A program made the position numbers and the translations under genes. From positions 1-39,107 of IMG/VR virus record IMGVR_UViG_3300042923_000456: a stretch of 39,107 bases of DNA; one strand, given 5' to 3'. The number at the start of each line of letters is the position of its first letter. Position 1 is the stretch's first letter. This DNA comes from a virus (lineage: Duplodnaviria; Caudoviricetes). Positions 1-28,297 of the stretch are shown piece by piece. The notes below the pieces were generated by a model, which was given only the letters and a program-made list of their open reading frames with translations, searched no databases and had not been told where the DNA came from.

Positions 1-127
1 ATCATATCCCTCGCATTTTCCTTCATACTGGTTTGGCATTCCTACCCCTAATGCAATAGCTTCTTTTATCACATTGCAATTTTCTAAAGTCTTTTTCACT
101 ACTATCACTCCTTCGCAATAATTAGCT
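1..127 (+). repeat. 127-bp exact terminal overlap (copy 1)
   Basis: 1..127 is identical to 38981..39107; an ORF reads through the junction. Confidence 0.97.
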
Positions 128-135
128 ATTGCGCA
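112..135. other. dif-like palindromic site A (9-6-9)
   Basis: TTCGCAATA-attagc-TATTGCGCA, overlapping the stop codon of 122..445. Confidence 0.65.
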
Positions 136-445
136 ATTCATATTCTTTATATAATTTAATCCAATCTTCCAAAGTCATTGTCACAAGCCATTCATGTCTA
201 TCTTTTCTATGAAAAACTGTAGGTAAATCATCTTTACTATCACTTTTAGCCTGGCTTATTGCATCGTATAAATTAAGCTTTTCAACTCTTTTGCATTCTA
301 TGTGAATGCCATTCAGACCCACCACATCAGCATCACCGTTCGAGCCGCAATATTGTTGCCCTCGTCTGCAATCATATCCATATTCTTTGAGCTTATTTGA
401 TAGTTCTCTTTCTCCTGCCGCTCCTTTACGTTTTGAATTAGTCAT
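122..445 (-). CDS. Holliday junction resolvase, PD-(D/E)XK Hjc-like
   Basis: SKRKGAAGERE...ADVV...IECK motif pattern. Confidence 0.8.
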   Translation of the reverse strand: MTNSKRKGAAGERELSNKLKEYGYDCRRGQQYCGSNGDADVVGLNGIHIECKRVEKLNLYDAISQAKSDSKDDLPTVFHRKDRHEWLVTMTLEDWIKLYKEYELRNS

Positions 446-5028: not shown

Positions 5029-5769
5029 TTAATATTTTTTCTGACATGTAAAACATAATGGCTTTTTAAATTTTCCAACAGAATAGTCGTGTATCTTTTG
5101 AGTTATGTCGCATTTGCAATCAATACATTTTAAAATATCATCTGTAGCGTTATTTGAAGCCGTAGGCGTTTGATTTGTTTGCTGACGTGTATTTGTATTC
5201 CCTTTATTTTTATCTTCTACAAAGTCGTTTAAATCAGTTTTGGGGGTAATGCCCATTTTAAATCTGCTTACTTTTTTATTATCTATAATTTCTAGCGCAT
5301 TAATTTCTCTTTGATCGTTGTAACCTATATTTTTAACTTGGAACTTTAGAAAAGAATTTACATTTACTTTATTATCTTTTTCATAGTACTCACCAGTTTG
5401 TAAATCAATCCAGATAAAAGGTGAGGTATACAACTCTCTGCCTATTCCTATATTAAATCCAGCTCTTTTAAAACTGTCTGAAGCTTGACCTTTTTCCTTT
5501 TCAGCGTTGCTTTCCACTCCTACATCTTGTTTTCTTACCCAAGTTTTTTTATCATCATCCCATATATCAATATTGCAAAATAGATTCCCGTTTATAACTT
5601 CGTGTGTTCTCTGCCATCCTCTTACTCCGTATTCTTCATCAAGTATTTTCATATCTACTCTTGCATCTTTATATAGCAGCAGAATACAGCCTACTGAACC
5701 ATTTGCTGTTTTTTTAGTACTTTGTACTCTGCACTCTATTTCATCAGCTCTTAACACTCTAATGCTCAT
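5029..5769 (-). CDS. Sak/Rad52-like single-strand annealing protein with C-terminal zinc finger
   Basis: LLYKDARVDM..LDE..G..GWQ, KGQASDSFKRA..GIGRELY; CxxC...CxxC tail. Confidence 0.82.
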   Translation of the reverse strand: MSIRVLRADEIECRVQSTKKTANGSVGCILLLYKDARVDMKILDEEYGVRGWQRTHEVINGNLFCNIDIWDDDKKTWVRKQDVGVESNAEKEKGQASDSFKRAGFNIGIGRELYTSPFIWIDLQTGEYYEKDNKVNVNSFLKFQVKNIGYNDQREINALEIIDNKKVSRFKMGITPKTDLNDFVEDKNKGNTNTRQQTNQTPTASNNATDDILKCIDCKCDITQKIHDYSVGKFKKPLCFTCQKKY

Positions 5770-11576: not shown

Positions 11577-11591
11577 AAGAATATAAGATAA

Positions 11592-11615
11592 TGCGCAATT
11601 TGAAATTATTGCGAC
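11592..11615. other. dif-like palindromic site B
   Basis: TGCGCAATT-tgaaat-TATTGCGAC. Confidence 0.65.
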
Positions 11616-11637
11616 TTTGAAAGGAGATAAAAGTTGT

Positions 11638-11803: not shown

Positions 11804-11962
11804 ATGAATAAAGTTAAAAGAAGTGCAAAAGAAGGAGAAACAATAGAAATTATAAAAACAGGAGAAGTTAAGAAGGTTAAATTTACTTTTATGGGTGGGG
11901 TTCATGTAGCTGATAATCACCTTACAAGTTTTTTAGATGATGAATATTTAGTTTTAGAGTAG
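11804..11962 (+). CDS. Hypothetical protein, 52 aa
   Basis: MNKVKRSAKEGE...EYLVLE with AGGAGG SD. Confidence 0.72.
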   Translation: MNKVKRSAKEGETIEIIKTGEVKKVKFTFMGGVHVADNHLTSFLDDEYLVLE

Positions 11963-11986
11963 TTCGTAATTCAAGAATATTTTGAA
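11963..11986. other. dif-like palindromic site C
   Basis: TTCGTAATT-caagaa-TATTTTGAA, immediately after a stop and running into the next SD. Confidence 0.6.
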
Positions 11987-11998
11987 GGAGGTATAAAG

Positions 11999-16438: not shown

Positions 16439-17125
16439 CTAATCTGCTTTATTATTTTCGTATATTAATACCATGCACAATATTGCAACTATGACAGCGG
16501 AAAAATATAATACAAGTGTGAAAAGCCACGAATCATTAATATACATTCCTGTATATAAAAGCAAAGCACCTATAACTATGTATATTATACTTATTGCTAT
16601 AGAAAGAATTAGACTTGCTACAAATTTATATTTAGGAACTATATATGCAAATGTTAGAATTATTGTGCCTGTTCCAACTATTGCATCTAGAAGCAAATTA
16701 AGTGGCTCATAATTAATATTTATATATCTACTCAATGAAAACATATAAACGAATCTAACTGCTAGATTTGCTAGCCAAGCTAACGGAAATGCAAGTATCC
16801 ATCTTAGCCAATTAGGGAGCCTTAATATACCTTCTTGTATGCTTTCTTCTTTTACTTGGGGTGCTTGTTCTGTTGCTGCCTGCTCTGTATAACTTTCTCT
16901 AGCCACTTGTTCTTCTGTTAATTGGTCATTGTATTGATTTCTCCACTCGTCATTTGTCAATACTTCTCTTGCATAGTTTAATTGTTTCATATATTCTTCT
17001 GCTTGCTCCCTATATTGCTGGTCTACTACATCAGGATGATACTTTGAAGCAAGAGTTTTATATGCCTTTTCTATGATGTCTTTTGATGCATTTCTACTAA
17101 CTTGAAGCAGTTCGTAAAGGTCCAA
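16439..17125 (-). CDS. J-domain (DnaJ) membrane protein
   Basis: DLYELLQV...IEKAYKTLASKYHPD...LNYAREVL...R.QYND, then four TM helices. Confidence 0.88.
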   Translation of the reverse strand: MDLYELLQVSRNASKDIIEKAYKTLASKYHPDVVDQQYREQAEEYMKQLNYAREVLTNDEWRNQYNDQLTEEQVARESYTEQAATEQAPQVKEESIQEGILRLPNWLRWILAFPLAWLANLAVRFVYMFSLSRYININYEPLNLLLDAIVGTGTIILTFAYIVPKYKFVASLILSIAISIIYIVIGALLLYTGMYINDSWLFTLVLYFSAVIVAILCMVLIYENNKAD

Positions 17126-23427: not shown

Positions 23428-24123
23428 TTATAACAATCTGTAGTATAAAGCACCATTGTTGATACCTGTAACATATTTATCGGTTGTTGTATCGTCCATT
23501 ATTGCATTATTGGCACAATCAATAAACCATACATTTCCCGTCATAGATTGCGCTTCTGCAAAAGAGTAAGGTGTAGTTAAAACAATATCTTTACCATTCT
23601 TTGTATTCATTGTTAGTAGGGAACTATACTTAACAATAACTGTTCCACTGCTATAATTCTTAACTATTCTTACTTTTTGTGGTTTTGTAGTTATAAAATT
23701 ATTAATTTGAACAACTCCGCCACCAGTTGTATTTGTGTATATTACATCGATATTTGAAACATCTAAATTGTCATATGTTCCTGCTGTTAATGTTAAAAGT
23801 CTATTCCTAAAATTACTTGCCATTTTAGCATCCGTCAAGGTTCCGTCTGGAATACCACCTAATACATAAGTACTAAGCTGGCTTTTAAGTTCAGCTAAAG
23901 CTGCTTGAACTTGAGTCGCTGTAAGTCCTCCTATTGCTGATATTGGTATATTACTAGCTATTAATTGAGGTATCAGAGTGCTATTGATATAATCTTGAAT
24001 ATCAATAGCAGCTTGGTCAAATTTAAGTTTAAGTTGAGCTGGTGTCAAATTATCTTCTTGATTAGGTCTATCGCTTAAAGATTGAATTGTATCTATTGAG
24101 CCAGTATAATTAGTAAATGCCAT
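23428..24123 (-). CDS. Tail fibre / fibre adaptor protein
   Basis: LSDRPN...LTPAQLKLKFD N-terminus, ATQVQAALAEL, IPDGTLTDAK motifs. Confidence 0.65.
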   Translation of the reverse strand: MAFTNYTGSIDTIQSLSDRPNQEDNLTPAQLKLKFDQAAIDIQDYINSTLIPQLIASNIPISAIGGLTATQVQAALAELKSQLSTYVLGGIPDGTLTDAKMASNFRNRLLTLTAGTYDNLDVSNIDVIYTNTTGGGVVQINNFITTKPQKVRIVKNYSSGTVIVKYSSLLTMNTKNGKDIVLTTPYSFAEAQSMTGNVWFIDCANNAIMDDTTTDKYVTGINNGALYYRLL

Positions 24124-26845: not shown

Positions 26846-26854
26846 CTCCTATAG

Positions 26855-26878
26855 TTCGTAATTTATTCCAAAAACGAA
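26855..26878. other. dif-like palindromic site D
   Basis: TTCGTAATT-tattcc-AAAAACGAA directly after the spike stop codon. Confidence 0.6.
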
Positions 26879-28297
26879 TTAGTACAACTCTACAGTTCCA
26901 CCATTTACTACATAGTAAGATTCTTCAAAATCACAATTTCTTAAATACATATTACCATTGTCGTTCCATATTGAATAGGGTGAATTAGATGATTTACAAG
27001 CTTCATTCCACATTTTGCAATCTGAACCATACATAAGAAAAAAATCACCTCTATTTATTGATTGAGCCAAAGAATCATGAGCATCGCAAGCAATATTCCA
27101 AGTTCTATTTCCTGGGCTTACATCTGCAACATTTGGTCCGACATTATGATGATATTCACCATTTAGCCTAATAATCGACCCGCCTTCATGCATTGTAGAA
27201 CCATTATCAGTATCATCAGACGCATGTCCATTGTGCCTACCTACGCAGTTTATTTCTATTACTTTTGGTTTTACATTATTCAGCGCATGATAATTAAAAC
27301 CATCCTCATAGGCTCTCGCAGCTAAACAATTTTCTACCACTACCAATGATGCACCGTCTATATCAAAAACATCCTGACTGCTTGTATATTTGAATTTGCA
27401 ATTTTTTGCGAACACTTCAAGATTTTGTCCTGCTCCAGTATTTTTAAACCAATTAGTTCCACCTTCTAATTTTAGATTTTCAATATATATTTTTATGTTA
27501 CCGCTTGCCACTAAATTATTAACATTTACATATGATACTATCTTAGCTTGCTCTGCCGTCAATCCTGTAAGGTCTCTTGAGTCCGCAGGATGAACGAATA
27601 TATATGAACCAGTTGTATAGTAAGAACCAGGAGTATTATTTGCTACTGTTAAATCAGTTTGCTTTGTAAGTTTAGTATAGTCTCCATTTGCATCCAACAC
27701 ATTAGTATCATAAACAGCCAAAGTGCCTATTACCCGTGTAGTTCTGTACAAATTAGGATTTGCAGAAGAAATAAAATCGGTCAATACATCACTTGTGTCA
27801 CATATAACACTATCGCCAAGACCTATTATATTTATGTTTTTTGTTATAGCAATACCATTAAAGCCACTGTCTTTATTATATCCACCATTGGCTAAATATA
27901 TTGTAATAACATCACTTTTCGCAACTGCGGTTTGTATATTTTTTAAAGCCGTACCCAGCGTTAATCCGTTGTTTGTATCATTACCGTTCACAACATCAAC
28001 ATAATAAGATGCTCCGCCAGTATTTTTATTTAATGCAATATTATAATCCGTAAAATATACACGATTAAAATCTCTATATATATTAATAGGTGCTTCCCAA
28101 GTAAATTCGCTTGGTCTTTGTAATGTATATCTTCCTGTCATTATTGCATTCGTCATTTCAGCCAATTGCGACTTAAGCTGTCCAGGTTCATCACTCAATT
28201 TATAATCTGTCAACGTACCGTCTGGAATCTGACCTAATACAACGTCTTGTAATTCTTCCCTTACTTTATTTATCTTGCCTTGATTAATTATGTCCAT
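26879..28297 (-). CDS. Right-handed beta-helix spike / receptor-binding protein
   Basis: YYVDVVNGNDTNNG..ALKNIQTAV cap, then DGFNYH, NGSTMH parallel beta-helix repeats. Confidence 0.78.
   Translation of the reverse strand: MDIINQGKINKVREELQDVVLGQIPDGTLTDYKLSDEPGQLKSQLAEMTNAIMTGRYTLQRPSEFTWEAPINIYRDFNRVYFTDYNIALNKNTGGASYYVDVVNGNDTNNGLTLGTALKNIQTAVAKSDVITIYLANGGYNKDSGFNGIAITKNINIIGLGDSVICDTSDVLTDFISSANPNLYRTTRVIGTLAVYDTNVLDANGDYTKLTKQTDLTVANNTPGSYYTTGSYIFVHPADSRDLTGLTAEQAKIVSYVNVNNLVASGNIKIYIENLKLEGGTNWFKNTGAGQNLEVFAKNCKFKYTSSQDVFDIDGASLVVVENCLAARAYEDGFNYHALNNVKPKVIEINCVGRHNGHASDDTDNGSTMHEGGSIIRLNGEYHHNVGPNVADVSPGNRTWNIACDAHDSLAQSINRGDFFLMYGSDCKMWNEACKSSNSPYSIWNDNGNMYLRNCDFEESYYVVNGGTVELY
28149..28172. 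other. dif-like palindromic site E, in frame within the spike gene
   Basis: TTCGTCATT-tcagcc-AATTGCGAC; encodes SQLAEMTN on the - strand. Confidence 0.65.

Follow-up and report, generated by a model that had tools for sequence, protein, structure and literature searches.

What would account for a phage tail gene that carries one palindromic site within its reading frame and a second site of the same kind at its stop codon? The question is raised by a predicted spike gene in a viral DNA of 39,107 nucleotides (IMG/VR record IMGVR_UViG_3300042923_000456), which we refer to as the window; the record is circular and complete, with a terminal repeat of 127 nt. A reading made from the letters alone (the sequence-only reading) had proposed that the two sites bound a receptor-binding cassette, and that site-specific exchange would fuse new C-terminal domains in frame onto a constant virion anchor. 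The sites have a defined anatomy, are constrained at the DNA level and coincide with the points at which related tail genes diverge, and it is probable that they are crossover sites of the tyrosine-recombinase type with different 6-bp cores, the segment between them being exchanged between phage genomes.

The phage and its spike gene

Among the 53 of 85 ORFs scanned are genes for a large serine integrase, a repressor, DnaC/DnaD-like replication proteins, an Erf-like protein, terminases, a P22-like portal, the capsid and an amidase whose ChW repeat is of clostridial type, and from this gene content the phage is therefore most likely temperate and short-tailed, with a host in the Clostridia. There is no match to the tyrosine recombinase family PF00589 in six frames of the complete genome, and the sole serine recombinase in the scanned ORFs is the 501-aa integrase, 15 kb from the spike gene. 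We note that a DnaJ-domain gene (16439–17125), unusual in a small phage, lies directly after the ejection-protein genes, and that a 39.6-kb contig in soil run X1 has scattered similarity to the window and a like gene order. The genes and segments discussed below are:

26879..28297, minus strand: predicted tail spike or appendage gene, 472 aa (ORF call, PHROG 32409, structural model and fold matches)
28175..28297, minus strand: anchor-coding part of the spike gene, with no homologue found elsewhere
26879..28148, minus strand: putative exchangeable segment, 1270 bp, the whole beta-helix body (from the alignment starts of relatives and from other phages)
5029..5769, minus strand: gene for an Erf-like single-strand annealing protein (PHROG 1097, E = 6e-20), which bears on an alternative mechanism

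The spike is laid out as an N-terminal anchor (residues 1–41), a neck helix (38–54) and a beta-helix body (~56–472), and it matches the tail fibre family PHROG 32409 over residues 72–466 (E = 8e-61). In an AlphaFold model from a 92-sequence alignment (pLDDT 92.5) a weak, low-confidence N-terminal helix is followed by the neck helix and then by the beta-rich body, and the peptide encoded by the in-frame site sits in the neck helix between the N-terminal part and the body. The nearest folds to the body are beta-helix hydrolases, lyases and tailspikes, all of them distant (E 3e-7 to 1e-3, TM 0.15–0.52, identity ≤14%), and a sequence search of the PDB gave no solved relative of the spike. A predicted right-handed beta-helix behind an N-terminal anchor and neck is the arrangement of tailspikes and depolymerases, and to judge from its modelled fold the body is probably the receptor-binding region. 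The anchor shares a 46-nt stretch (28196–28241; 80% identical) with a 231-aa tail gene that has no site (23821–23866), and because of this shared stretch we suggest that the spike anchor arose from the 231-aa gene.

Five palindromic sites in the window

The window contains five palindromic sites (A to E), all with the same 11-6-11 layout of two arms around a 6-bp core:

110..137, no strand assigned: site A, of the same family, straddling the stop of a RusA-like gene
11590..11617, no strand assigned: site B, of the same family, separating the serine integrase from a small ORF
11961..11988, no strand assigned: site C, of the same family, with a stop codon on one side and a ribosome-binding sequence on the other
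26853..26880, minus strand: site D, overlapping the spike stop codon, core GGAATA, with a ribosome-binding sequence after it
28147..28174, minus strand: site E, in frame, core GGCTGA (28158–28163), encoding K42 to A51

Site E reads AAGTCGCAATT GGCTGA AATGACGAATG on the minus strand and is translated as K42-SQLAEMTN-A51, in frame as the sequence-only reading had it, and the palindromic pattern given there matches E with no mismatch. Site D (AATTCGTTTTT GGAATA AATTACGAACT) has a degenerate gene-side arm and fits that pattern only with three mismatches. The placement claimed for D is borne out, since the first base of its 24-bp form (TTCG...CGAA, 26855–26878) directly follows the TAA; 1270 bp separate the 24-bp forms of D and E. 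The ~340 bp from B to C, next to the integrase, contain two very small ORFs and may be an accessory cassette.

For scoring we used a weight matrix from 18 intergenic sites, of which four lie in the window and the rest in the Clostridium sediminicola chromosome. It gives the five sites 17.7–23.6, with the next-best position in the window at 9.5, and none of 200 third-order Markov null genomes has any site reaching the 17.7 of E; E is outside the training set, although it was in view when the seed pattern was defined. When the E peptide was recoded synonymously according to phage codon usage (100,000 draws), the score of E was reached in 2 of 10,000 (P = 0.0002; left arm P = 0.005, right arm P = 0.06). 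Site E is beyond chance. Among 48 minus-strand gene ends D scores highest (18.3 vs 3.3), a comparison that is not independent because D is in the training set; site A lay just outside the interval covered by the gene-end scan. No recombinant joint at D or E was seen in contigs of two soil runs, one of them probably the origin of the window; contigs cannot show absence.

A site family in Clostridiaceae tail regions

The strict form of the pattern is present in 14 of 151 Clostridiaceae genomes (two of them the seeds; control, 0), and among the matches listed 11 of 14 are in frame in tail-like genes, with ORFs judged by eye. Eighty regions downstream of the baseplate family PF10076 were chosen without the DNA pattern, from the upper part of at least 150 matches listed. 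These have 33 matches at a 6-bp spacer and only 0–6 at each of 12 other spacers; two inverted arms of ~11 bp at an exact spacing of 6–8 bp are the form of a tyrosine-recombinase core site. One codon register is common to 26 of the 28 in-gene matches with scores of at least 10.

The constraint on the DNA is evident in the codons. A wide peptide motif has 38 distinct matches in the 80 regions and the strict form [ST][QH]LA[DEQ] has 15, among which leucine is TTG in 13 (background 12%), serine or threonine is xCG (TCG or ACG) in 10 (background 3–6%), and 12 beat synonymous recoding at p<0.05. Two of the 15 are small non-fibre proteins without a DNA site and do not beat recoding, and most holin-like matches among the 38 are without any site. 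The register is fixed by the G of TTG, with which the core begins, and downstream sites often have CAA TAG where in-frame sites have CAA TTG. Codon usage agrees with the suggestion of the sequence-only reading that the SQLAE-type peptide is the protein footprint of a DNA site: synonymous positions in these codons are constrained within the site family, and the free variation that would speak against it is not seen. The peptide [ST]-[QH]-[LM]-x-[DEQ]-x-[ATV]-[NK] is what the site encodes, and its free residue x falls within the core.

An intergenic site accompanies the in-frame one in 15 of 25 regions and is present in 5 of the 47 regions that have no in-frame site (p = 2e-5, for regions that are not independent and after eight under 6 kb were dropped). 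The prediction that a second site follows each stop holds only in part: downstream sites do co-occur with in-frame ones, but they lie directly at the stop in six genes only (those of the window, L022, L036, CPD1, CPQ4 and CBP1), and 10 of the 25 regions have none. In fibre genes the second site is usually 0.45–2 kb past the stop, and the unit therefore includes the small genes behind the fibre. The core of D, GGAATA, recurs at the downstream sites of L078, L090 and L097, and two regions (L073 and L090) have tandem gene-site units. Many in-frame copies are degenerate, with scores of 6–12, and C. tetani phages have 0 and 1 site at scores of 11 or more.

The strict pattern has seven matches in GTDB, three in phage-like tail genes and four in unrelated genes, and it is present in 2 of 301 genomes in a class-wide sample and 2 of 401 in a phylum-wide one. 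In both samples one of the two genomes is the seed, so the strict form with its GGC core is not general. A degenerate SQLAE pattern gave 11 matches in viral contigs, approximately the chance level, and none of these lies in a tail gene whose ORF is complete. One contig assigned to a Neomarinimicrobiota MAG (L022/L046) has Clostridia-like tail genes with both sites, and is probably a mis-binned phage contig.

Other occurrences are of several types. In the C. sediminicola genome (G001) one prophage-like tail cluster has in-frame sites in three genes and one intergenic site (L045:12790, 13706, 15961 and 18143). The chromosome of this genome has 39 site matches vs 9 for the control, and family sites form both ends of a dispersed non-coding element of ~250 bp, with end cores GAAATA and TATAAT or TATAGT and with short forms in which the sites are tens of bases apart. 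Copies of the element in C. sediminicola G001 are:

L039:6880-7140
L043:6478-6748
L047:6457-6740
L042:7302-7361

In another genome (G029, L025:1490-1630) an in-frame site sequence is found just before a 30-nt direct repeat that occurs twice, resembling a CRISPR array, and the site sequence may be a spacer acquired from such a tail gene.

Homologues of the spike

The body of the spike is widespread and its anchor is not. We found no homologues of the window's own anchor using residues 1–42 as query, and the 312-aa neighbouring gene also gave no matches. A capsid query identified 13 loci, and this spike gene is absent from all 12 that were examined (a 35-residue fragment, L256, was left out). 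The closest relative, L244 (89% capsid identity), has no such spike gene but a 757-aa beta-helix gene, the N-terminus of which is orthologous to the window's 231-aa gene and which has an in-frame site with the core GGCTGA, as in E. A second site near the stop is absent in L244, L227 and L228, and Bacillus phages Anath and Athena and locus L001 have a spike gene without a site.

A phmmer search with the spike returned 2112 relatives, and among the 170 examined the alignments begin mostly at query residues 40–69. Where there is enough upstream sequence, 10 of 160 relatives have a SQLA-type peptide no more than 20 residues from the corresponding position, on anchors that clearly differ, and at five control offsets the peptide is found in 0 of 168–170; its exact register in the ten is partly set by the alignment itself. 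The peptide is missing in the other 150, and the body is also found in phages of Staphylococcus, Klebsiella, Gordonia and others, so the domain moves by other routes too.

Tail genes diverge at the sites

Twelve of 14 pairs of tail genes that share an anchor diverge across the site, and at control offsets divergence is seen in 0 of 75 (–180 to –60) and 1 of 13 (–30). The 13 switching pairs have an identity of 0.96 over the left arm and 0.92 over the core, falling to 0.55 over the right arm, and the last shared base is at site positions 13–19 in 10 (the core is 12–17) and at 25, 31 and 34 in the rest; seven of the 13 come from one cluster, so that there are ~6 independent groups. The cores differ at two of six bases in two groups (L099/L101 and CPD1/CPQ4) and at one base in a third. 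One example is the three-way set L028, L029 and L038, in which the same anchor is joined to different tips and a different anchor to the same tip start, both changes being at the site. In the reciprocal class as a whole (same tip, different anchor) none of three pairs is over the thresholds, with two near misses.

The clearest example, that of the cultured phages CPD1 and CPQ4, came from an anchor-only query (87 residues, motif excluded), which gave 14 phage records, of which CBP1, CPD1, CPQ4 and Athena were examined; another anchor-only query gave no matches. CPD1 and CPQ4 are 97–100% identical over the 120 bases preceding the in-frame site and share its left arm and three core bases. Past this core there is no detectable similarity for 1.4–1.5 kb, and the two are identical again from the last left-arm bases through the core and right arm of the second site, which lies 1–3 bases after the stop. 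To judge from the aligned sequences, both borders have the pattern expected of crossovers in two cores. In CBP1, a phage of Caldibacillus, the in-frame peptide is present and written in rare codons, and there is a site on the stop; Athena has neither.

The expectation that C-termini change at the motif is upheld within the site family, where conserved C-termini past the motif are not seen. The broader claim of tip exchange at the site needs qualification: related tail genes do diverge there, but exchange of the same domain, and among related phages, also takes place where there is no site. Nine of 11 phages in the CPD1 group lack both sites and are mosaic at other points, and a blast-based breakpoint survey of the 80 regions gave at least 346 events, too noisy to count, with many breaks away from sites.

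Search for a recombinase

The cognate enzyme was not found; there is no tyrosine recombinase in the window, and none is annotated in CPD1. Two conserved Xer-like genes are present in five Clostridiaceae genomes, a canonical dif pattern has fewer matches than its control in five genomes, and beside 30 tyrosine-recombinase loci (host Xer included) there are no sites beyond two weak in-gene matches. Predictions of dif are reported to have failed for two Clostridium genomes (PMC3025954).

Many Clostridiaceae prophages encode, in their early region, a 331-aa XerD-like recombinase that is 30% identical to a chromosomal XerD-like protein; this phage family is found at 59 places across 48 of 384 genomes and is absent from the window. 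Among 40 of the 59 places examined a site is present in 19, in no fixed position, and the loci have 25 matches at the 6-bp spacer vs 2–9 at other spacers. The family is enriched near sites but loosely, and we do not accept it as the cognate enzyme. We note that at L164:15860-18104 (G065) one copy looks split and rearranged between two strong sites; other copies are in L186–L225.

Exchange between genomes and its alternatives

Reasoning from Cre and Xer biology and from the spacer matching described for pdif sites (PMC13141974), we propose the following scheme. A tyrosine recombinase from outside this phage would bind both arms, and a crossover at two in-frame sites with matching cores would join two phage or prophage genomes, giving a product that keeps the anchor and left arm of one parent and the right arm and tip of the other. 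A second crossover at the downstream sites (such as D), or homologous recombination further on, would complete the swap. Any tip would fuse in frame, since the codon register of the site in the neck helix is always the same, and the unlike cores GGCTGA and GGAATA would prevent loss of the segment through recombination between E and D within a single genome. A swap of spike tips would change host range.

Several observations weigh against this model: the prevalence of spike homologues without the peptide (150 of 160) and of CPD1-group phages that are mosaic and site-free (9 of 11), the lack of a recombinase in the genome and of a second site in 10 of 25 regions, and the fact that any domain border yields a pattern of constant anchor and variable tip. 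The wider proposition is that phages of Clostridia and Bacilli, temperate and lytic, share a natural cassette exchange, in which unrelated phages trade receptor-binding domains from a common pool, in frame, at address-coded sites of the tyrosine-recombinase type in the necks of spikes and fibres, by means of an enzyme supplied in trans, with the SQLAE-type peptide as its footprint; we regard the chances of this as evenly balanced.

An alternative is that the sites are hot spots seeded by homology, in which short shared sequences are joined by annealing proteins (of the Erf, RecT or Sak types) or by host recombination, with a palindrome-bound protein perhaps merely stimulating the process. This phage encodes an Erf-like protein and no tyrosine recombinase, the gene annotated as a 'recombinase' in CPD1 is presumably an annealing protein from its family features, and site-free mosaicism is common both in the 80 regions and in the CPD1 group. 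However, homology should keep whole sites alike, yet the right arms of switching pairs are only 0.55 identical with the symmetric consensus kept, and annealing needs neither an exact 6-bp spacing nor address-like cores. We therefore consider it unlikely.

The sites could also be operators or roadblocks bound by a dimeric repressor, possibly with a recombinase fold, and be mere passengers of the swaps. The positions of sites A–D, at stops or adjoining ribosome-binding sequences, would suit such a role, and in SPbeta MrpR is a protein of recombinase fold that acts as a repressor on a repeated phage element (PMC10516654). That motif is 15 bp and in promoter regions; near D or E there is no excess of promoters (8 found vs 8.9 expected). 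A repressor also gives no reason for one codon register (26 of 28) or for placement at the divergence points of tail genes, nor for the same site form across unrelated phages and hosts, and a regulatory function of this kind seems very unlikely.

Use of the sites may instead lie in the past, if they are former crossover points (such as mobile-element ends) through which the tip came and are conserved through recent ancestry. One Clostridium chromosome does have these sites as the ends of its dispersed ~250-bp element, degeneracy is frequent among in-frame copies, and the gene-side arm of D is poor. But rare codons are retained across unrelated anchors and hosts, and pairs 93–100% identical upstream have already swapped tips at the site, so the exchange is recent, and that the sites are only relics is highly improbable. 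Lastly, a purely protein-level motif, in which SQLAE is a coiled-coil heptad that closes the neck helix and the palindrome arose by accident, agrees with the position of the motif within the model helix and with like peptides in small non-fibre proteins that have no site, but on the recoding results for E and for 12 of the 15 strict peptides, and with a matrix from non-coding sites finding the in-frame ones, it appears already largely refuted and is scarcely credible.

Comparison with known systems

The receptor-binding genes of phages are mosaic, and joins outside invertases and diversity-generating retroelements (DGRs) are usually ascribed to untargeted recombination. If a defined site marks the join, the choice between targeted and untargeted recombination becomes directly testable, and peptide and DNA together provide a marker for the border of anchor and tip in thousands of unannotated Bacillota tail proteins. 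The sites also point to an uncharacterised recombinase with several non-interacting spacer addresses, which could serve protein-domain exchange in Gram-positive hosts. We found no description of the site family or the peptide in the full-text literature searched, which covers few of the subscription journals.

The sequence-only reading had set the system apart from DGRs and invertases, and we agree: the window has no reverse transcriptase, repeat pair, linked invertase or spare tip. More specifically, 53 scanned ORFs include no reverse transcriptase and the 20 largest repeat families no template/variable pair; nor does the window resemble an integron, with its IntI integrase, attI and folded attC sites, as there is no PF00589 match in six frames and the sites are 28 bp. 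In the Mu Gin/gix, P1 Cin/cix and e14 Pin switches an in-frame crossover site in the fibre gene joins a constant N-terminus to alternative C-termini. These switches rely on a linked serine invertase acting at inverted sites with a 2-bp core, and the genome itself carries the alternative tip in silent form. The record of phage 186 likewise has a 'Mu-like inversion crossover site' annotated in its fibre gene. The spike shares with these a putative crossover site inside a fibre or spike reading frame, but the only serine recombinase in the scanned ORFs is the distant 501-aa integrase and not an invertase beside the gene, there is no inverted spare tip (no second tip in the ORF list), the core is 6 bp, and exchange is apparently between genomes.

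Recombinase-mediated cassette exchange with heterospecific lox or FRT sites, an engineered method, uses a known enzyme on sites of the form 13-8-13, and is similar in that two symmetric sites with unlike spacers flank a replaceable segment; the spike system would be its natural counterpart. XerS/difSL and XerH/difH use one recombinase and a single-copy terminus site beside its gene. One recombinase acting on both arms would fit the symmetric arms seen here, but our sites are multi-copy in phages and none is beside the chromosomal Xer-like genes examined.

MrpR and its element SPBRE are a catalytically dead repressor of recombinase fold and a 15-bp promoter motif (PMC10516654). The resemblance is that of a repeated phage element with a binder of tyrosine-recombinase fold, and that account makes no link to gene exchange, unlike the one proposed for the 11-6-11 sites.

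The pdif/dif modules of Acinetobacter Rep_3 plasmids have sites for XerC-XerD with two arms around a 6-bp spacer, and modules bounded by such sites are proposed to be exchanged via a cointegrate, favoured by identical or near-identical spacers, with the enzyme encoded off the module (PMC13141974). As described there, the similarity extends to the two arms and 6-bp spacer, the site-bounded unit and the enzyme that is not on the unit. The differences are that pdif sites, in the same account, have distinct XerC and XerD arms, are inversely oriented and bound whole genes on plasmids, whereas here both arms fit one consensus (and one matrix), neither resembling the right arm of the predicted clostridial dif in the rows compared, the genomes are those of Bacillota phages, one site is inside an ORF and the unit is a protein domain. 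The feature belongs with neither the invertase switches nor the pdif modules, and it combines the logic of both.
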